Shown: in pieces, positions 40,022 to 63,978 of the stretch
Position numbering within the stretch: the first letter of the stretch is position 1
How the letters are laid out: the number at the start of each line of letters is the position of its first letter
Translations under genes and position numbers: made by a program
Origin: a virus
Length of the DNA: 64,000 bases
IMG/VR virus record: IMGVR_UViG_3300046673_000306
Span: 42,546-106,545 of that record
Reading direction: 5' to 3' (one strand)
Notes under the pieces: model-generated
The model's database searches: none
Told to the model about the DNA's origin: nothing
Seen by the model: the letters and a program-made list of their open reading frames with translations, nothing else

Positions 40022-43000
40022 CTACCGCCAAACTGAAACACGGACAACTGCACCTGCACCTTGAGCCGAGGTCCAAGTCACGTCCAGGAAGTCGCTGATC
40101 TGATTGGCGAATCCCACGATGATCGTCGGGACTGCCCCCGGAACCTTGTACGCCACGGTCATTATGGTATCTGAAGTCAAAAGACCCGCTAACGACATGG
40201 TTTCGGTCGCGGTAGCACCGGTACCCGGTGCACTATCGATGACTACGATTCCCTTCGGTACCGTAGGCTCCCATTGGGAATCGGTGGCACTATAAGTTAA
40301 AACCTGGCCATCGGTTGGGGTGGCCTCTGTTACTGGGGTGTTTCGGATACCTGCGACTGTGGGATTAGGTAATGTCCCTGAGAGGTCTCCGCCAAGAGCG
40401 GACGACCCACCAAATAATAGCGAGCCTCCTACATTGATACTACCGTTCACGTCAAGAGGATGTGCCGGAGATGATGTGTTTATGCCGACCTGGCCCGTAG
40501 AGTTGACAAAGATCGACGATGCTGGCGCCGCATGGTCCAGGTGGAACACAGCTGCACCGTTAAATCCATTACTGCCGGTAAGAGACTTTAGTTCAAAAGC
40601 TCCACCGGTATTTCTGGCCACAACCTGCCACCTAGTAGTCGCCAAGGTGTATGGGGTAAGGGTCAAGGAGCCGTCTAGGATTTGCCCATATGTTGCGTTA
40701 CCGCTAGAGCTGATACTAGCTCCATTAACGGCATCGACCTGAAACACGAGGCCCACGGAATGGCCGTAATGCCCGAGCTGAACTGTGAACACACCGCAGC
40801 CACCAGTGCCTGGGATGGTCTCTACACCACCGTTGGCTACGCCGAGCTTAAGGCTCGCCGCGACATCCAGGCCAGAGAGGCCAGTAGTCACGACCAGGGA
40901 AGCATTGTACTTATTGAAGGCGTCTCCGGGAGTGGTAAGCGTATATATTGTGTTCGTAAAACTCGCCGTGAACGATGCGTAAGAATGCGAGTACGCACCC
41001 CCCGTGGGGTGCGTCGAAGGAACTGGCGCTGTCTGAGCATGACTTGGGTCACCACTCACCGCAACGCCAACCAAAATCGCGGCGGCGGGGTATGACAAAA
41101 CTGCCACCATGACCTGCGCTGCCGTCGAGACCCCCGATGCTATCTGGACATGTATGGCCGCCGAGGATACTGTCACGACCTCTGAACCTGCGGTGCCGCC
41201 GGTTTGGTAAGAGATTGCGATGGCACGTCCCGCAAGCCCAGTCGAAATAGAAGTATACGTGAGGTCCTGTATGACTACGCTCGATACACTATCCACGGAA
41301 GCCGGAGTAGAGGCGCGCACGGCGCTCTGGATGGCTGCTGCAATATTGGCCCCACCGGTTATAGCAGATGAACCCAGGTTAATGGTCAATGGGGATTCCC
41401 CATTGATAGTCATCGTCAACGTGGAGTTCGCCGCCACCGAAGTCGCGGCTCCAGATCCCCCTACGGACTGCCACCCAAAGATAGATCCCGTCCAGAGAGA
41501 CAAACCGCCACCAGTCGCCCCTGCTGACCCAGAAAGAATATTAACAGACCCGCCATTATAATCGGAGTCGCCTGCGAGCGCGTATATAGCACCGCCCCCA
41601 AGCGAGCCGCTAGTCCCATAAGCTCTGCCGCCAATAAGTATAATTCCATCCCCAGCACTGCCTGGAGCCACTGCTCCAGAGGGGCCCATTATTTCAACCG
41701 GAGACAAGTACCCACTGGCATTTATAGACGGCACAAGGATAGCGCCTGGTGAATTTAATGGATTGCTGGATTTGAGATTAACCCCTGAGATGGCCGCACC
41801 ATATCCAGGTCCAAAAATAGTTGGCAGAAACGCCGGACCCACTGGAGACCAATTGAAGATTGGCATTGAATTGTTCGTGTCGCTAGAGAAGGTCTCACCC
41901 TGAATAGCGTGAACGGAAGTCACCGAAGGATTCGGGTATTCCCCGGATAAATCACCGCCTGCATAGCCGGTTGGGGTGGCCTCTGTGATTGGGGCCGGTA
42001 GATTAGTTGGCTCCCATTGGGAATCGGTGGCACTATAAGTTAAAACCTGGCCATCGGTTGGGGTGGCCTCTGTTACTGGGGTGTTTCGGATACCTGCGAC
42101 TGTGGGATTAGGTAATGTCCCTGAGAGGTCTCCGCCAAGAGCGGACGACCCACCAAATAATAGCGAGCCTCCTACATTGATACTACCGTTCACGTCAAGA
42201 GGATGTGCCGGAGATGATGTGTTTATGCCGACCTGCTCGGAGGAATTGACGAATAGTGCTGGTGGGACTCCAAAACCGGAACCGGAACCAGCTTTATATA
42301 ACCCGAAAGAACCATCGGAATCCGAATGTTCAAGAACCCACATTCCTGATCTATTGGCGGCATGAAGAAACACTCTTGCGTTAGGATTCTGACCCGAATT
42401 CGAACCTCCGAATATATTTAGACCATCCCCATCCCAATAACCGATCGTAGATGTCCCCGGACTACCGCTCCCTGCGATGAAGTGAAATCCACCAGTGCCT
42501 CCCACGCCTCCGAAATACTCTTGCCCACCATTATCAATTCCTAATTGCAGAGCTGCCGCCACGTCTGGACTAGACAAACCAGTGCTGACCACGAGACTGG
42601 CTTGCATGTGGGTTAGAACATCCCCTGGGGCCACCATCTGGTACGCGCCTCCAGAAAATTGACACTGGAATCCAGAATACGAGATTTGATTCGTGGGAGT
42701 CGCGGCAGTCAAGGCCTGAACCTTGGCTTGGATATCAGCCGCAATCGCAATCCCCGTGCTATTGGCGGCCAGGACAATAGTCTGCGCAGCTTCACCATCG
42801 ATAGACATGGTCAATGTCGCGCCCGCAGAGACCGAGGTTGCGGGGCTATCGCCGCTATCGGATTCCCATCCGAGCACATTGCCTGAGAAGAAAGTCATGC
42901 CGCCGCCTGAGGTGCCTCCACTGATACCAGCCGCGATGTTCATCCCGCCGCCGCTGAAGTCAGGGGAACCAGCAGAAATGAAAGCGTTGCCCCCGGATTG

Positions 43001-56693: not shown

Positions 56694-57130
56694 TTGGCTG
56701 GGGGTTCCTGCTGCGGGGGCTGCTCCTGCCCGCCCTTGACCCCGGAGAGGTAGTCCATCAGGGCCTTGCCGTCCAGAATCTTCTCCACGTCCCAGGCCGC
56801 CGGGTCCTGGAGCACGCGGTTGATCAGGTCCTCGAACCAGGTCCGCATCCTGCGGTCAACCTCTGCGGCGTCGACCTGGGACCCGCGCTGGCTCAGGTAG
56901 TTGACCAGGGCCTGATACCGCTGTCCTGCGGCGTGGTCCGCCGGGGCCTTGGCGGTCTTGGCCTTGGCCATGCGGCCCAAGGACGCCATCTGGAGCTTGC
57001 GGTAGTCGAGGTCGGGGAGGTGGGTCTTCTCCGACATGAGGCCGGGGCGCAGGGCCACGTCCTCTGGGGAGCCGGTGCGCACGTCCTTGCGGTCTCCCGC
57101 GCCACGGTAGTTCTTGGGGTCGAAGCTCAT
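56690..57130 (-). CDS. hypothetical head-region protein
   Basis: 146 aa; ATGA/GTGA overlaps. Confidence 0.7.
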   Translation of the reverse strand: MSFDPKNYRGAGDRKDVRTGSPEDVALRPGLMSEKTHLPDLDYRKLQMASLGRMAKAKTAKAPADHAAGQRYQALVNYLSQRGSQVDAAEVDRRMRTWFEDLINRVLQDPAAWDVEKILDGKALMDYLSGVKGGQEQPPQQEPPAK

Positions 57131-60060
57131 GCCGCCTCCGGGAGTCCCTGACCGGCGCCCGCGCCAGGTATGGTCTCCGCCGCAGGCATGGGCGTGCCCG
57201 GGGTCGGGACCGTGGCCGCAGTCTCGCCCTCGCCGGGGACCGGTCCCTCACCGCCGCCGCTGTCCCCGCCGCCGCCGCCACCCATGGGCGGAGGGGCCCC
57301 GGCGCCGCCCGCCCCGGGCTTGCCTCCGGGCTTCATCCCCTGCATCGCGGCCTTCTTCTCCTCGGCCCTCTCCCGCTCGATCTGGCGCTTCTCCTTGCGG
57401 TAGTCCAGGCCCAAGTACGTGTAGAAGGTTTGCTTCGAGATCAGGCCGGTTTTGGCCATCTCCTTCATCAGGCCCTTCATCTGGACGTCGTCCTTGAGCT
57501 TCATGAACTCGAACTCGATGTCGGGGACGATGTACTCGTCCTCCCCGAGTTCGTTGCGGCGCCGGAAGTCCTGGGCGATGGCCACGGGCCGGAAGATCGT
57601 GTCCTTGATCCAGCGCGCCAGCATCTCCTGGCAGCGCATGTAGCGGTTGATCAGGACCTGGAGGCCGATCGACCCGGCGGCAAAGTTCGGGCCGGTGCCG
57701 CCGATCATGGCCTCGGAGCCCATGAGCGCGGCCATGATCTCCTCCCTGATCCACTTCGACTCCTGGTCGAAGGGGTGAATCTTCCCGGCGCTGGACACGT
57801 ACTCGACCGAGATCGCGTGGTGGTAGACGAACCAGGCGCTCAGGTCCTGGCTCAGCTCGTCGAAGGCCTCGCGCACCTGCGTCACGGCCTGCGGGTTCGC
57901 GGGCATGGTGTCAGTGCCGACCTTCACGAGCTTGATCGGGGTGATGTGGCGCTCGTACACCGCCTGCTGGACCCGGCGCACCAGGTCCTTGAAGATCAGG
58001 GGCTTGAAGGCCCGGAACATGATCGGGGTCCCCACGCTCTCGTACGGGCTCATCTTGTAGGCGAGGTGGCTGACCCGGAACTTGTTCAGGGGTATCTTCT
58101 CGCCGCGCGCGACGAGGTTGACCAGCTGCCCGTTCTCGATCTTGGCCAGGGCCTCGTAGAGTTCCTTGGGCTGGCGGCTGGCGACGATCCGCTTGAGGTT
58201 GTCGTCGGGGTCGAGCTTGAGGATCGGCTCACCGACCAGGGATGACTTCTCGACCTCGACGAAGTCGGGGTTGAGGAGGTTGAAGCCTGTCCAGATGCCA
58301 CGGTCGTCGTCCCACTCCCCGAAGGGGAAGACGTTGCCCAGCTTCCACCACTCGTGGCTGACGTCGCCGATAAGGTTGAGGCCCTTGATCACGTCGAAGA
58401 ACAGAATCTCGAAGAAGAGTTTCACCTTCTCGTCGTCGCAGACCAGGTGGGCTCCGGTCATCGGGAGGTCCGAATTGTGGACCACGATCGGGGCGCAGAA
58501 CGATCCGTCTTCGGTAGTTATGTCGTAGACGGTTCCGGAGAACTTTTTCTTCCGGACATCCCTGACCTTGACCAGGAATCCTCCGGGGGCCTCATGATAC
58601 GTCTTCCTAGGGGATCGAGCAGACTCATGCGCGATTCCGTAGACCTTGGGGAGCACCTCGGTCTTGGATGCGCGCATGTAATAGATAGGCTTTCTCTTCT
58701 GCCCGTCTTTCCTGGAGGTGATGGTCTTAATGGAGAACAGAAAACCCAGCCGCGCGGCCAGGACCTCCATTTGGTAGGCGAGAGTCCGCGACACCGTGTT
58801 GGACTTAACGCAGAATTCATCGGCCATGCAGCCGTCCCCATTGAGGTATCCGATCAAAAATTTCCTCATCCAGGACGATTCCCCATCCATGATCCACTGA
58901 GGCACTCGCTTGTTCTGTGCCCCGAGTCCAAATTCCGAGCAGAACCACTTGGACAGGAGACGCGAACAGACATAGACCTTCGCGCCGTGGGTCTCCTTGG
59001 TGATCATGACCTTCGGCTCCATCTTAAAAACCTTTCGGATCAATTCCGAGACCCTGGCGATATTATTGGGCTCGTGGGTACCTAGGCAGAAATAAATCGC
59101 GCCACCGTCGGAGTAGCCCTCGGCGGCCCACCACCCTCCCAACTCGCAGAGATCGTCATCGGCGATCACCTTACGAGGTATCCTGGACCCTGATTTTATA
59201 GACAAGATCGTGTCGCCCTGGACCTCCATCAGGCTCACCTTGTGAGACCTATCGGTTTGAGGGAAACCTACCCCTGTCTGATTGCGTATGGTCATGTCAT
59301 ATTTGACCGAGCGCTCCCGAATAAACTTGGAGAGGTCGAACTCCACCGCCTTATTGGTAGGAATTCGCTTGGGGAAGAACAGATAGTCTCCGGGCCTGAC
59401 ATCCTCGGCCCTAACCCAGGATGGTCCCCCGTCCGGCATCCATCTCCCGCAGTCGTTCCTGATCTTGCCGCACTTGTCCAAACGCGGCATGTGGTCCATA
59501 TAGCGACCGTGCACGACCCATAGCCCTTCGTTGTGGGTGACCTTCAACTCAGGTAGACAGAATGGCTTCACGGTGTAGAGAGTCCCGTCGTAGTGGTGGG
59601 ACTCCGCGTGCTTGACAACCTTGGCCCTGCCGTCCAAACCAGGTACCGAATCGCCCTCTTTCACGTCCTCAATGTTCACGACGTCGTTCATCGTATACAC
59701 TGCGGAACCGGCGGCGAAGCAGTGCATATCTATCACGGTCCCGACATAGCCATCCGTTTTATAAAAATGTCTCGCCCACTGGTCAATTTCCCGTGTCTTC
59801 GTCGGAAGCTGTAGGTTCAGCGCCTCGAACAGAGGGTGGTAGAACGACGGCGCCTGCCGGTGTAGGCCCGGCCTCATGTTCCCGAACTGCGACGCCATCT
59901 TCTTCATGCGCGCGCGGGGAATGTCCACGAGGGCGCTGCCGGTCAGCCCCGGGCTCACCGCGTTCTTGATCATCTTGAACTCGGCGTCCAAGTTGGACGT
60001 GACGAGACCCGACCCTTCAGGGGCGGGCACGCTCGCGGTCTTGTCGTTGGCGTCAGCCAT
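57127..60060 (-). CDS. portal protein (with intein)
   Basis: W.RHFY..V..VID.H|SDLP; EWWKLGNVFPF; LLNPDFVEV; V.HL..K.SPY..GTP; Gly/Pro C-tail; synteny. Confidence 0.8.
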   Translation of the reverse strand: MADANDKTASVPAPEGSGLVTSNLDAEFKMIKNAVSPGLTGSALVDIPRARMKKMASQFGNMRPGLHRQAPSFYHPLFEALNLQLPTKTREIDQWARHFYKTDGYVGTVIDMHCFAAGSAVYTMNDVVNIEDVKEGDSVPGLDGRAKVVKHAESHHYDGTLYTVKPFCLPELKVTHNEGLWVVHGRYMDHMPRLDKCGKIRNDCGRWMPDGGPSWVRAEDVRPGDYLFFPKRIPTNKAVEFDLSKFIRERSVKYDMTIRNQTGVGFPQTDRSHKVSLMEVQGDTILSIKSGSRIPRKVIADDDLCELGGWWAAEGYSDGGAIYFCLGTHEPNNIARVSELIRKVFKMEPKVMITKETHGAKVYVCSRLLSKWFCSEFGLGAQNKRVPQWIMDGESSWMRKFLIGYLNGDGCMADEFCVKSNTVSRTLAYQMEVLAARLGFLFSIKTITSRKDGQKRKPIYYMRASKTEVLPKVYGIAHESARSPRKTYHEAPGGFLVKVRDVRKKKFSGTVYDITTEDGSFCAPIVVHNSDLPMTGAHLVCDDEKVKLFFEILFFDVIKGLNLIGDVSHEWWKLGNVFPFGEWDDDRGIWTGFNLLNPDFVEVEKSSLVGEPILKLDPDDNLKRIVASRQPKELYEALAKIENGQLVNLVARGEKIPLNKFRVSHLAYKMSPYESVGTPIMFRAFKPLIFKDLVRRVQQAVYERHITPIKLVKVGTDTMPANPQAVTQVREAFDELSQDLSAWFVYHHAISVEYVSSAGKIHPFDQESKWIREEIMAALMGSEAMIGGTGPNFAAGSIGLQVLINRYMRCQEMLARWIKDTIFRPVAIAQDFRRRNELGEDEYIVPDIEFEFMKLKDDVQMKGLMKEMAKTGLISKQTFYTYLGLDYRKEKRQIERERAEEKKAAMQGMKPGGKPGAGGAGAPPPMGGGGGGDSGGGEGPVPGEGETAATVPTPGTPMPAAETIPGAGAGQGLPEAA
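58474..59721 (-). mobile_element. intein with LAGLIDADG endonuclease (416 aa)
   Basis: CFAAGSAV; GWWAAEG; FLIGYLNGDG; VYDITTEDGSF..VVHN|S. Confidence 0.9.
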
Positions 60061-60069
60061 AGAGATATT

Positions 60070-60504
60070 TTACCTCGCCTGCATGTCGTAAAAACTCTGC
60101 TGTATCGCGTCTCCGGGGTTCCCCGTCGTGGTCTGCCCCTCTTCCTGGGGGTCCCCCTCCTTCACCGCGTTAGGCATCGTCTCCTCTACCAGCGTTCGAC
60201 GTCTCTTCCGGTTCGCGAGCATGATCGAGGATGGGGACCCGGTGTCAGGCTGATTCTCCGTCCCGTACCCCTTCTCGACGTTGCGGTAGCCCGCCGGGCC
60301 CTCGAAGAACTCGGGCTCTTGACCTTCGAGGCCCTGCGGAGGGCGGAAGCGCACGCGCTGGCGCGGGCGGATAGGTCCACGAAGGCCCGGACCATCCTTC
60401 TGGTTCTTCTGATCGAGCGGTTGATCGACTTCAACAAGGTTGAGATTCTCCGGACCCTGGCCGCCAATTCCGGAGTCCGGGCCCCGGACATCGGCGACGT
60501 GGTC
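60070..60504 (-). CDS. C-terminal extension (144 aa) of the 62650-60503 protein, reached by +1 frameshift
   Basis: Open frame starting GAC at 60504 (DHVADVRGPDSG...) to the TAA just before the portal ATG; contains ORF 60070..60354; no ATG at its 5' end. Confidence 0.7.
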   Translation of the reverse strand, partial: DHVADVRGPDSGIGGQGPENLNLVEVDQPLDQKNQKDGPGLRGPIRPRQRVRFRPPQGLEGQEPEFFEGPAGYRNVEKGYGTENQPDTGSPSSIMLANRKRRRTLVEETMPNAVKEGDPQEEGQTTTGNPGDAIQQSFYDMQAR

Positions 60505-60517
60505 AAAGCGACCCCCT
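60502..60517 (-). promoter_or_regulatory. prfB/RF2-type +1 programmed frameshift signal
   Basis: AGG GGG TCG CTT TGA C versus E. coli prfB AGG GGG TAT CTT TGA C. Confidence 0.8.
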
Positions 60518-62650
60518 GGAAGTGAGGGTTCCGACCACGCCAGCGCTCGCCTGGGGCATCCCGTTGACGCTGGTGACCGCGACGTCCGCCCCTCCGGGGG
60601 GCACGTCCATGGTCGCCACCTGCTTCCCCGGCCCGGGGCCGACGATGCGCTTGACGCGCTCCTCCGGGGTCTCGGGAGTGCAAGGGGTGTCCAGGGCGTG
60701 CTCCTGGCCGCACTTATGGCAGACCGAGAACGCCTCGCCAGCCCCCAGCTCGGGGCTGTCCGACGGCCACATCGCGTCTGCCAGGCAGAGGCTGCCGCTG
60801 AGACTGGCCTCGGTCTTCGCCGGGATATTCGCGTGCTGCTTGTCCTGCTCCTCCTGCTGCGTCTTCTTCCGCTCTTCCCGGTCCTCGCGCCGCTTCTGCT
60901 TGCGCTCCTTGTCCTTGTCCACGCGCTCGTGTAGGGCCTCGATCGCGTCGTGGAGCTGCTTGATCTTGACCGGGTCCTTCTCCGAGTCGAGCTGGTGCCG
61001 AAGTTCCTTGATCTTCGCGCGCTCGCCCTTGGCCTCCTGGGACAGTCCGTCCACGGGGTAGGCGATGATGAGGTTTCCGTCCTTCGAGGGTCTCGCCATC
61101 GTGATCCCGGTCAGGCTCTCGATCTCGGAGGTGACAGCGCGCGCCATCGTCCCCATCTGGCTGGCGATCAGGGGGTGGCGGAAGGCTTCGATGAAGGAGT
61201 GGCCCAAGGCCATAGCCGACACTTGGTATGGCACAAATTTATCGCACGGACAAGTGCCATATTTCAGACTCGGGTCCTGATATGCGCATGATCCCTCAGG
61301 CCCTGCTATATATGGAACTCTGTCTCTGCGAGCCTTCTCGGTATGCCACCCCAGATCATGACCACATTCTCTGCACAGGTTCTTGTCTCCGAACTCCGCC
61401 ACGATCTCGCGCGCGATCGACTGCGCCCGATCCGGCTGTGCCTGGCGCAGGGTCAGCGTGTCTCTGACCGAGAGCCGGACGTGCTCGGACTCGCCCTCGT
61501 ACTGGGGCGCCCAGATCACCATCTGCTGGGCCTTGGGCCACCAGTGGTTGGCGATGCCGCCGAGCTTGGCGTGCTCGCAGCCCCTGCACTTGTCGCGGTA
61601 GGTCTCGTGCGTGACGTCGGACTCGAACCAGACGCAGTCCCGGCACTTGTTGATGTCCTTGTAGATCGAGTTGCCGGGCTCGGAGTCGCCGGGGTCGCCG
61701 GAGGCGGCGGTCTTCACCGTCCCGTCCAGACCGGCCTCGGCGCCCTTCGCCGCCGCCTGCTCCTCCGACTCCTCGCGCATGGCCTCCGGGGTGTCCGGAC
61801 CCGGAAGCTCCGTGGTCGGGGGCATCCCGTCCCCGGGCATCCCCGGGGTCATCATCGTGTTGACGTTGAGGTCGGCGATGATCTCGTTGAGCATGGACTC
61901 GATCAGGAGCATCTTCGTGTGGACGCAGCGCATGTCGTCGTAGGCCTCGTCCATGGCCTTGCGGACCATGGCCGGGATGTGCCCCGCGATCGCCGACGCC
62001 GGGCTCGGGGTCTCCTCCGAGGGCGGCATCTCCGGGAGGCCGCCGTCCATGAGTTCGATCTCGGGCATGGCCGGGGACGAGGCGGGCTCGACCGCCCCCT
62101 TCTTCCCGAGGTAGTTGGCGGCGTCGTTGATCAGGAGGAAGGCGTTGGAGATGGCCTCGGCCTGGGCCACGGACATGTCCGAGGCCTTATCCCTCAGCTG
62201 CGTCACGGCACCGATCACGGCGTCGGCCTTGGCCGTGATCTCGCCGCAGAGGTCCGCGACCTTCTGGTCGCCTCCGCAGGCGCCGACCGAGCCCTTGACG
62301 CCCTCGGCCTGGTCCGCGATCCGGCTGAGGAAGTCCACGGCCTTGACGCGCTCGGCCTGGCTCAGCTGGGCCTCGGCGCGGCGGTGCATGTCGATGATGC
62401 GGTCGAACACGGACTCGGCCAGGTGCTGCGGCGCCGAGACCTTGGTCAGTCCCGCGACCTTGACCATGCCCTGCCGGATCGGGGCCTTGCCCTGAGTCTG
62501 GATGCCGTCGGAGAGGCGCTGGACCCGGAGGTCATCGGCGGAGGCCTGCTTGAGATTCGGAGCCCGGAGCCCCAGCTTGTTGGCGAGGGTATGCCAGAAG
62601 CTGCTGGCCTTGTCGTCGCGGCCTTCGGGGTTTTGGTAGGGGGTGATCAT
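60503..62650 (-). CDS. large head-region protein with Cys clusters and coiled coil
   Basis: 715 aa from ATG 62650; CRDC..CRGC, CRECGH..H..CPC, CHKC motifs; directly upstream of portal. Confidence 0.75.
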   Translation of the reverse strand: MITPYQNPEGRDDKASSFWHTLANKLGLRAPNLKQASADDLRVQRLSDGIQTQGKAPIRQGMVKVAGLTKVSAPQHLAESVFDRIIDMHRRAEAQLSQAERVKAVDFLSRIADQAEGVKGSVGACGGDQKVADLCGEITAKADAVIGAVTQLRDKASDMSVAQAEAISNAFLLINDAANYLGKKGAVEPASSPAMPEIELMDGGLPEMPPSEETPSPASAIAGHIPAMVRKAMDEAYDDMRCVHTKMLLIESMLNEIIADLNVNTMMTPGMPGDGMPPTTELPGPDTPEAMREESEEQAAAKGAEAGLDGTVKTAASGDPGDSEPGNSIYKDINKCRDCVWFESDVTHETYRDKCRGCEHAKLGGIANHWWPKAQQMVIWAPQYEGESEHVRLSVRDTLTLRQAQPDRAQSIAREIVAEFGDKNLCRECGHDLGWHTEKARRDRVPYIAGPEGSCAYQDPSLKYGTCPCDKFVPYQVSAMALGHSFIEAFRHPLIASQMGTMARAVTSEIESLTGITMARPSKDGNLIIAYPVDGLSQEAKGERAKIKELRHQLDSEKDPVKIKQLHDAIEALHERVDKDKERKQKRREDREERKKTQQEEQDKQHANIPAKTEASLSGSLCLADAMWPSDSPELGAGEAFSVCHKCGQEHALDTPCTPETPEERVKRIVGPGPGKQVATMDVPPGGADVAVTSVNGMPQASAGVVGTLTSRGSL

Positions 62651-62664
62651 CTTGGTTCTCCTCT

Positions 62665-63978
62665 CTATGGAACGTATATCGGGTCGCCCTGGTCTCCGCC
62701 GCACATCATCTGGCTGTCCTTGGGCACGTTTCCGCCGACGTAGCTCACGTCCGTCTTCGAGACGTCGACCTGGTCCTTGTTATAGTCGTCGATAGTGAGC
62801 CAGTCCTTCCTCGGGTGCGGCGACTTCCGGGTCTGGCCGAGGGGGGGCACCGACTGCCCCGGGAAGTGCTGGGGCTCCGAGGTCGGGACGGCGGCCAGAG
62901 CCATGAACTTGACCCCGGCAGTGACCGTGGGCTCGGGACCGCCGCGCACGGTGCGGACGGCGTTCTCCAGGGCGTCGAAGCCCATGGTGAAGAAGCGGTG
63001 GATGGAGGCGACGCTGTCCAGGCCGTGGGCGTGGACCAGGCGTATGAAGGTGTCGTACACGGACTCGTCGTTAACCGGGAGACCGATCTTGCCCAGGACC
63101 GCGCGGAGGACGCGGGCGACGCCGAGGTCCCAGAACGCGCGGTCGACCACGCCCTCGACCCCGCTGGCTCCGGCGCTGACACTGGCCCGGTACTTCAGCT
63201 TCTGGAACAGGGGCGCCGCCTCCTCTTGCTCTTCGTGGATGGCCTCGTACTCGTCCAGCACTTCCTGACCGAAGACGACGATCTTGTCCTTGCCCGTGTT
63301 CTTGCCCACGACCAGGGCGAAGTGGGCCTCGATGGGCCGCTTGCCGATTCCGACCGTAGCGCTGTGCCCCGTCTTGTCCCTATATATTCTACGGATTCCC
63401 TCGATCGTGTCAATGTCCAGGGGCAGGGTGAAGAGCATGTTGTCGCCGCCATCGAAGATCAGGCGACCGCCGTGCTCCTTGACCACGTCCCCGATCTCGT
63501 CGTGGGCGTCGTGGATCGAGCGCGAGATCGCGGATGCGGCCTCGGGGTCGTCGGTGAGCAGCGTCTCCTCGACCAGGCTCCCGATGTTGTCGCCGTCGAT
63601 GCCGACGAAGACCTGGGGCTCGGAGTCGTCGGAGAGTTCGGGCCCGGAATCGTCGTCGTCCGCCGCCGCGTCCTTGTCCATGCCCGGAGCCTGGCCGTAG
63701 TTCTTGTCATACCACTCCCGGGTGTGGATGGGACTGCGCTCGCTCACGCCGGTGGTGCGCTGGAGGGACTTATCGACGATGTACTGCGAGACCAGGTTCT
63801 GCATGGTCTCAGTCAACGTCTCCTTCGTGTCTTGCTCGCTTACGTAGCCCGCGATCCTCTCCGTGAGCCAGTAGGTGGCGACCCCGATTTCGCGCTTGGT
63901 GAGGTTGAGGCCGCTGCGGACCAGGAGGCTCTGGACCTGGGTCTTCAGCTGGTTCCAGGAGACCTCGGTCTTGAACAT
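62665..63978 (-). CDS. protein containing a minimal CRISPR polymerase (mCpol; Cas10/GGDEF-like palm) domain; may extend beyond the window
   Basis: FVGIDGDNIG..S..I....GG.LIFDGGDNML..SATVGIG....AH.AL..GK..GKD at about 63612-63272; frame open to the window end. Confidence 0.75.
   Translation of the reverse strand: MFKTEVSWNQLKTQVQSLLVRSGLNLTKREIGVATYWLTERIAGYVSEQDTKETLTETMQNLVSQYIVDKSLQRTTGVSERSPIHTREWYDKNYGQAPGMDKDAAADDDDSGPELSDDSEPQVFVGIDGDNIGSLVEETLLTDDPEAASAISRSIHDAHDEIGDVVKEHGGRLIFDGGDNMLFTLPLDIDTIEGIRRIYRDKTGHSATVGIGKRPIEAHFALVVGKNTGKDKIVVFGQEVLDEYEAIHEEQEEAAPLFQKLKYRASVSAGASGVEGVVDRAFWDLGVARVLRAVLGKIGLPVNDESVYDTFIRLVHAHGLDSVASIHRFFTMGFDALENAVRTVRGGPEPTVTAGVKFMALAAVPTSEPQHFPGQSVPPLGQTRKSPHPRKDWLTIDDYNKDQVDVSKTDVSYVGGNVPKDSQMMCGGDQGDPIYVP

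Follow-up and report, generated by a model that had tools for sequence, protein, structure and literature searches.

The +1 frameshift signal of prfB, the gene for release factor 2 (RF2), is described from the well-studied gene of Escherichia coli, and its consensus consists of AGGGGG, a spacer of 3 nucleotides (nt), CTTTGA and a following C (10.1101/2024.09.24.614795; PMC3711429). All CUU-stop +1 sites in RECODE were prfB (PMC10885494), and the full cassette, in which a Shine-Dalgarno (SD)-like element is followed by 3 nt and CUU_UGA, is treated in the literature accessible to us as a signature of prfB alone. Here, we analyze a 64,000-nt stretch of virus DNA (positions 42,546 to 106,545 of the IMG/VR record IMGVR_UViG_3300046673_000306; hereafter, we refer to this whole stretch as the window) in which the cassette lies on the stop codon of a 715-amino-acid (aa) open reading frame (ORF), P0001, directly upstream of the portal gene, and is conserved in a phage gene family. 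We conclude that the site is very probably a programmed, prfB-like +1 ribosomal frameshift giving a 715-aa and an 859-aa form of one protein. The window is the last 64 kilobases (kb) of a 106.5-kb record of an uncultured phage that is about 64% complete, and the sequencing runs that hold the stretch are mostly peat metagenomes.

Other kinds of frameshift have been described in virion genes of phages. In the Listeria phages PSA, A118 and A500, the tsh gene, which encodes the major tail protein, carries a +1 frameshift at CCC_UGA whose product was confirmed experimentally (PMC5009743, citing Zimmer 2003 and Dorscht 2009). Like tsh as described there, the window locus stands in the virion module and would yield a C-terminally extended second product by slipping +1 at the sense codon next to UGA. 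The slip codon, however, is CCC there and CUU here, and tsh is a tail gene of low-GC phages of cultured hosts, whereas the present site is known from sequence alone. The passages on the Listeria cases that we read refer to a proline codon and a stop, or to a pseudoknot for the capsid gene, and mention no upstream SD-like stimulator (PMC5009743). The same source lists the lambda tail chaperones gpG/gpGT and the T7 gene 10A/10B capsid proteins as -1 frameshift pairs (PMC5009743). As presented there, these pairs resemble the window locus in that one structural-module gene gives a short form and a C-terminally extended long form in a fixed ratio, but they shift by -1 on heptanucleotide slippery sites, with a stop codon and a release factor outside the signal. 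Our literature search, the coverage of which is incomplete, found no paper describing an SD-3 nt-CUU_UGA cassette in a phage structural-module gene.

In the window, the cassette reads tcc AGG GGG TCG CTT TGA C (60517-60502, minus strand; Table 1), with the same cis elements at the same spacing as in prfB: an SD-like AGGGGG, a 3-nt spacer, CUU_U, UGA and then C. The degenerate pattern RGGRGGTCNCTTTGA occurs once in the 64 kb and in 0 of 100 dinucleotide-preserving shuffles; plain CTTTGA is at chance level (19 found vs. 17.5 expected). Past the slip site, the +1 frame runs from GAC at 60504 (GAC CAC GTC...) through 144 open codons to a TAA that ends 9 nt before the portal ATG at 60060, with extension and portal in the same frame. 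The first ATG, GTG or TTG in this frame lies 151 nt after the stop, and none is present in the 202 open codons upstream. An earlier note on this DNA had pointed to the motif on the stop of the 715-aa ORF, to its improbability by chance and to a 144-codon +1 frame that lacks a start and ends 9 nt before the portal; the sequence at the site, the shuffles and a start-codon scan of that frame confirm these three observations.

Table 1. Features of the frameshift locus, in window coordinates (position 1 is the first letter of the window)
Feature	Position	Strand	Description
Shine-Dalgarno GAGGAG	62658..62663	-	7 nt upstream of the ATG of the 715-aa ORF
Zero-frame ORF P0001, 715 aa	60503..62650	-	ATG at 62650, stop TGA at 60505-60503; conserved N-terminus; signature in G+C content at third codon positions (GC3)
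Internal SD-like stimulator AGGGGG (in relatives, GGGAGG or AGGAGG)	60512..60517	-	3 nt upstream of the slip codon
3-nt spacer / E-site codon TCG (in relatives, TCT or TCA)	60509..60511	-	Third base varies freely
Slippery CTT_T, i.e., P-site Leu codon CTT and first base of the stop	60505..60508	-	CTT invariant
Stop TGA and next base C (TGA-C; in relatives, TGA-T or TGA-G)	60502..60505	-	
+1-frame extension P0002, 144 codons and stop TAA at 60072-60070	60070..60504	-	Conserved C-terminal module, predicted disordered, ending ...FYDMQAR
Portal gene (Portal_Mu / phrog_16240), intein-interrupted	57127..60060	-	ATG 9 nt after the extension stop

CTT makes up 59 of the 1195 Leu codons in the window genes, and GAC is counted 744 times in them. 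Their stop codons are TAG (18), TGA (18 of 44) and TAA (8), so that TAG is as frequent as TGA. An SD motif precedes 24 of 41 window starts, compared with 24% of random positions; as these genes use strong ribosome-binding sites of the GGAGG type, the host ribosome should recognise the internal SD-like element.

We compared the site at the DNA level across the window, a near relative (L001) and further lineages from viral and metagenome collections (L003/L006/L007, L005 and L008); other members of the family were compared as proteins. In the further lineages, the main protein is 39-43% identical to P0001 and the extension 56-69% identical, and each has a homologous +1 frame of 122-148 codons ending 3-9 nt before the portal ATG. 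RGGRGG-TCN-CTT-TGA is kept at every locus with DNA, which amounts to at least five diverged lineages: the cassette is AGG GGG TCG CTT TGA C in the window and L001, GGG AGG TCT CTT TGA T in L003, L007 and L005, AGG AGG TCT CTT TGA T in L006, and GGG AGG TCA CTT TGA G in L008. CTT TGA is thus invariant among them, and the SD-like element always stands exactly 3 nt upstream of CTT. The invariant stop, UGA, is one that RF2 reads; prfB-type cassettes use UGA or, rarely, UAA, but never UAG. In P0028, whose frame gives GGHF|DH, the implied frame-0 sequence is xGGxGGxCA-CTT-TGA-C. CTT accounts for 4-9% of Leu codons in the relatives and AGG for 2-7% of Arg codons (L003, L005, L006, L008); because these rare codons are retained while the adjacent Ser wobble base varies, the constraint appears to act at the nucleotide level, and the free change of that wobble base next to the slip codon indicates that synonymous sites had time to turn over. 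At the protein level, 19 of 22 family members end in [RG][RG][SAL]L (RGSL, GRSL, RRSL, GRAL or RGLL). One member known as a protein only, P0014, ends in GRSLR, with one extra codon between Leu and the stop; either its cassette differs or the called ORF is wrong.

Substitutions downstream of the slip site concentrate at the third codon position of the +1 frame. By codon position, the differences number 33/36/86 of 136 between the window and L003, 27/19/66 between L003 and L008, 29/30/67 between L005 and L008, and 3/4/24 in the extension between the window and L001. On reading the latter alignment, all changes in the first ~100 nt after the stop are synonymous in the +1 frame, including TCC<->AGC, and the extension contains an 18-nt in-frame indel. 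Amino-acid identity between lineages is 0.60-0.71 in the +1 frame vs. 0.33-0.44 in the other two sense frames. Conservation sets in early: A-D-x-R-G-P-D is kept from codon 3-4 past the slip site, despite exchanges among GCC/GCA, GAT/GAC, CGG/AGA and TCC/AGC/TCT. Taken by codon position, these comparisons mark the +1 frame downstream of the slip site as coding and under purifying selection. Upstream of the site, frame comparisons between lineages are uninformative, as the C-terminal modules there differ.

The same data bear on whether the gap before the portal holds a different gene, with the +1 frame open only through high G+C. Two other ORFs, an antisense one of 68 aa (P0003, 60319-60525, plus strand) and one in the +2 frame whose TTG or ATG start overlaps the stop codon (P0004, 60186-60482, minus strand), are open in both the window and L003 and could mislead gene callers; an SD-5 nt-TTG arrangement would be a plausible start for the +2 frame; and the G+C content of 60340-60519 peaks at phase 1, a pattern that initially resembled a plus-strand GC3 signal. 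This peak, however, is accounted for by the many Gly, Asp, Glu, Pro and Arg residues of the extension. Substitutions concentrate at codon position 1 of P0003 and at position 2 of P0004, +2-frame amino-acid identity is 0.34-0.44 vs. 0.60-0.71 in the +1 frame, and no family matched P0003 or P0004, whereas the +1 product has natural in-frame homologues. The codon-position data lead us to reject both ORFs, and we regard this explanation as refuted and extremely unlikely.

How ribosomes enter the +1 frame is constrained by the distribution of stops and starts. In L003, L006 and L007, the +1 frame reaches back no more than 17 codons from the stop, and L003 and L007 have no ATG, GTG or TTG in it before +325 nt; by reading, the 17-codon entry window of L003 also contains no near-cognate start (CTG, ATT, ATC, ATA). 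The sole start-like codon at SD distance is the TTG within CTTTGA, which is in the +2 frame, where there is no coding signal. Given conservation from codon 3-4 and no shared start, entry from the zero frame near the stop is the only route common to all lineages.

Several observations weigh against a prfB-like frameshift. In L001, L005 and L008, the +1 frame contains a GTG or ATG 35-53 nt ahead of the stop, and residue 13 of the extension is Met in L005 and L008, so separate initiation is conceivable in those lineages. The base after the stop differs in most lineages from the prfB-typical C, which makes UGA-C a weak context for termination, being C in the window, L001 and, as inferred, P0028, T in L003, L005, L006 and L007, and G in L008. 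The C-terminal RGSL/GRSL, which adjoins a recurring GTLxL motif, could be under selection at the protein level. The long product is a prediction from sequence comparison: the one contig of RNA run X19 covers 60688-60832 only, outside the slip site. Two scans of genome contigs gave no match that would point to a host. An actinobacterial one would be unexpected, as Actinobacteria do not have the motif and shift poorly on it (10.1101/2024.09.24.614795).

The first of these points would fit a separate small gene with AGGGGG as its ribosome-binding site; its translation, without any fusion, would begin by termination-reinitiation at the TGA or at a start that is non-canonical or specific to a lineage. 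Public gene callers indeed give short separate ORFs at the site (P0028-P0034), and in distant phages the domain is attached to a different protein, which allows for more than one partner. The upstream GTG and ATG codons, however, are not conserved across lineages, and neither the window nor L003 or L007 offers an in-frame ATG, GTG or TTG before +151 or +325 nt; the L003 entry window provides no near-cognate start, and the TTG of CTTTGA is in a frame with no coding signal. Residues ahead of the optional Met are conserved with synonymous changes, and a separate gene would leave the invariant combination of a rare CTT with TGA unexplained. We therefore consider it improbable, at well under one chance in five.

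More trivially, the split could stem from faulty sequencing or assembly, or from a recent frameshift that inactivated an originally continuous 859-aa gene, with the cassette a coincidence. Single-base frame changes at T runs are a common artefact, and the contigs of run X5 end at 60504 and 60506. The X5 break, however, is what would be seen if a strain variant carrying a 390-nt module between CTT and TGA, like that of L001, co-occurred, and contigs of two other runs, X7 (record 16) and X10 (record 2), bridge the site with no indel. At least five diverged lineages, assembled independently and from different metagenomes, share the arrangement, with the +1 frame under purifying selection. Nor did a continuous in-frame long protein turn up in two large protein collections, either in a profile search of 1.8 billion representatives or in a search of proteins of 472-1504 aa with the extension part of the fused product P0052; this fits selection for both products rather than tolerance of a lesion. 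The earlier note had suggested aligning homologous loci and looking for an indel, and both checks came out in favor of the frameshift: the cassette and the downstream +1 frame are conserved in related loci, and the reads of other runs, as assembled, contain no indel. An error or lesion is effectively refuted, with a probability that we take to be negligible.

The extension also occurs as part of other proteins. A profile search against the 1.8 billion representatives gave 24 matches, with E down to 1e-17 and below, and several of these are ordinary proteins of 195-445 aa with the extension motifs in frame at the C-terminus. The shared motifs are DNLDLVE..KP.D, RFRNEPGG, G.GSDQ..D.GSPSS, MPNEKMERDP.EEKQT and F.DMQ.R-stop, and one in-frame carrier is encoded two genes upstream of a phrog_16240 portal. 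Such in-frame C-terminal homologues in distant phages argue that the extension is a genuine protein module. Its AlphaFold model is disordered (predicted local distance difference test (pLDDT) 56, predicted template modelling score (pTM) 0.13) with a terminal helix at residues 132-143, so the extension is predicted to be an intrinsically disordered tail with conserved motifs and one short terminal helix. Disorder with a terminal helix is what is expected of a tail that folds on a partner, and our guess is that it may serve as a binding tail for a head-assembly partner.

In lower-GC distant phages (P0038, P0040, P0044), the module is in frame on proteins with a UvrB/UvrC (UVR) motif, P0038 additionally has a LexA-type winged-helix DNA-binding domain, and L010 (4144-5202) has two adjacent UVR-motif genes upstream of its portal. 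These are hints that the carrier of the extension module may bind DNA in some phages. Profile-profile comparison found no homology between the P0001 family and the N-terminal parts of the distant in-frame proteins, and tblastn of P0038 gave no match.

Under the frameshift reading, a ribosome on the 715-aa ORF would reach the stop with CUU and its tRNA-Leu in the P site and with UGA in the A site. The SD-like RGGRGG 3 nt upstream would pair with the anti-SD of 16S rRNA, the close spacing favoring forward movement; with RF2 slow at UGA, the peptidyl-tRNA would re-pair from CUU to UUU, and the ribosome would then decode GAC (Asp; in the lineages, an abundant Asp or Glu codon) and continue for 144 codons. 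The expected products are the 715-aa termination form and the 859-aa form (P0052) with the junction ...TSRGSL-DHVADVR.... The earlier note had proposed a prfB-type cassette with a short form of 715 aa and a long one of about 859 aa, a proposal that the comparative evidence strongly supports; from that evidence, we infer that the shift occurs. By analogy with the prfB mechanism, and in view of the invariant TGA, the ratio of short to long form would depend on RF2. RNA folding of the stretch downstream of the slip site and of the portal start region revealed no conserved structure (z -1.7 to +1.1), and Rfam gave no match; the phage site is like prfB in having no 3' stimulatory structure.

In other respects, the phage site differs from prfB. 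It lies at codon 716 of a long ORF rather than near codon 26, most of the phage relatives have T or G after the stop, and termination would give a full-size product instead of a short degraded peptide; the outcome would be two co-expressed forms. Pfam identifies no release factor domain in P0001 or P0002, and PF00472 has no match anywhere in the virus record. As the phage gene is not a release factor, there would be no autoregulatory loop.

P0001 itself belongs to no recognised family: it has no significant Pfam or PHROG match, Atlas searches gave no usable match, and its AlphaFold model is of low confidence (pLDDT 49.8), with long helices and disorder. The sequence is likewise rich in helices and disorder and contains Cys-rich motifs (KCRDCVW...HETYRDKC), and the N-terminus MITPYQ is kept in all homologues. 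The earlier note had called it a head protein. Its position supports this in part, as it stands in the head module directly upstream of the portal, which is followed by the head maturation protease and the major head protein; the searches, on the other hand, gave no homology to known families of head, scaffold or packaging proteins.

The earlier note had further suggested that translation of the portal is coupled to the shift, which would gate head assembly. We find no support for this. In each lineage, the portal ATG is preceded by an A-rich leader and, at a distance of 6-12 nt, by a weak SD-like AGG/GAGG that the conserved terminal Arg codon supplies, and RNA folding shows no significant structure occluding this start. 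With a gap of 3-9 nt, reinitiation after the extension stop is possible, and independent initiation is equally possible. A complex prediction of the extension with the portal gave no verdict (score 0.00, with no controls run) and weighs neither way on binding. In the boldest version of the idea, the phage would have copied the host RF2 signal, so that host RF2 activity would set the short:long ratio of a head-assembly protein, and reinitiation at the portal ATG would tie portal output to the shift. We think this unlikely. If true, the prfB feedback of the host would clamp the short:long ratio, or shift it when termination is perturbed, and the virus would encode a sensor of host termination capacity that controls capsid assembly.

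Among cultured phages, the closest portal is gp14 of Bacillus phage G (35.8% identity); by reading, the translations of gp11-gp13 of that phage contain no extension-like motif or DMQxR ending. The window portal is interrupted by a LAGLIDADG-containing intein of ~410 aa (~58490-59720, minus strand), inserted after ...GTVIDMH (Cys1; VVHN then Ser+1). Inteins are absent from the portals of L003, L005, L006 and L007, which measure 565-570 aa. That of L001 (1013 aa) diverges earlier, directly past LQLPTK, and seems to carry an intein at a different site, and the L010 portal has an endonuclease-containing insert.

The cassette region itself varies in module content. In L001 (8219-8640; P0006, P0007), an extra module of ~130 aa (390 nt) is inserted exactly between CTT and TGA. 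On either side of the module stands a copy of a 27-nt repeat, GGAACCCTCAC[C/T]TCCAGGGGGTCGCTT, which includes both the SD-like element and the slip codon; after the first copy, CGT stands in place of TGA. In P0010 and P0018, a Cys-rich module is inserted after an internal RGSL. From these sequences, the region looks like a place where modules are gained and lost by recombination. Family proteins also contain 2-4 copies of a motif of the form ~A-S/K-F/L-x-G-T/S-L-C/S-L-A/G at apparent module boundaries, often before the terminal RGSL/GRSL; in P0001, it is found at residues 615-625 and 703-715 (~60503-60806 of the window, minus strand). This recurring GTLxL-type motif could mark processing sites, e.g., for the prohead protease, in which case the frameshift tail might be cleaved after assembly.

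Directly upstream of the frameshift gene, at 62665-63978 on the minus strand, lies a gene whose 437-aa product contains a minimal CRISPR polymerase (mCpol)/Cas10 palm domain (Pfam E = 1e-20) and whose stop is 15 nt before the ATG of the 715-aa ORF; this is an unusual neighbor for a head module. The window contains no tRNA genes, and searches detected neither an integrase in G000 or G001 nor a large terminase family in G000, G001 or G002. Neither blastn of the region against cultured phages nor viral-contig scans with P0023 and P0024, which represent a more distant subfamily, yielded a match.

These results should be of real interest to both the recoding and the phage-assembly fields. Because the window cassette matches the E. 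coli prfB consensus, a reporter in E. coli could show whether the ratio of a viral structural protein responds to the level of RF2. For annotation, they suggest a rule: ‘orphan’ ORFs of 120-150 aa upstream of the portal in uncultured large phages, currently mis-called or missed, may be the +1-frame extensions of the gene before them. For the biology of this phage family, they suggest that the RF2-type signal is portable and may have been recruited to make two forms of one protein.

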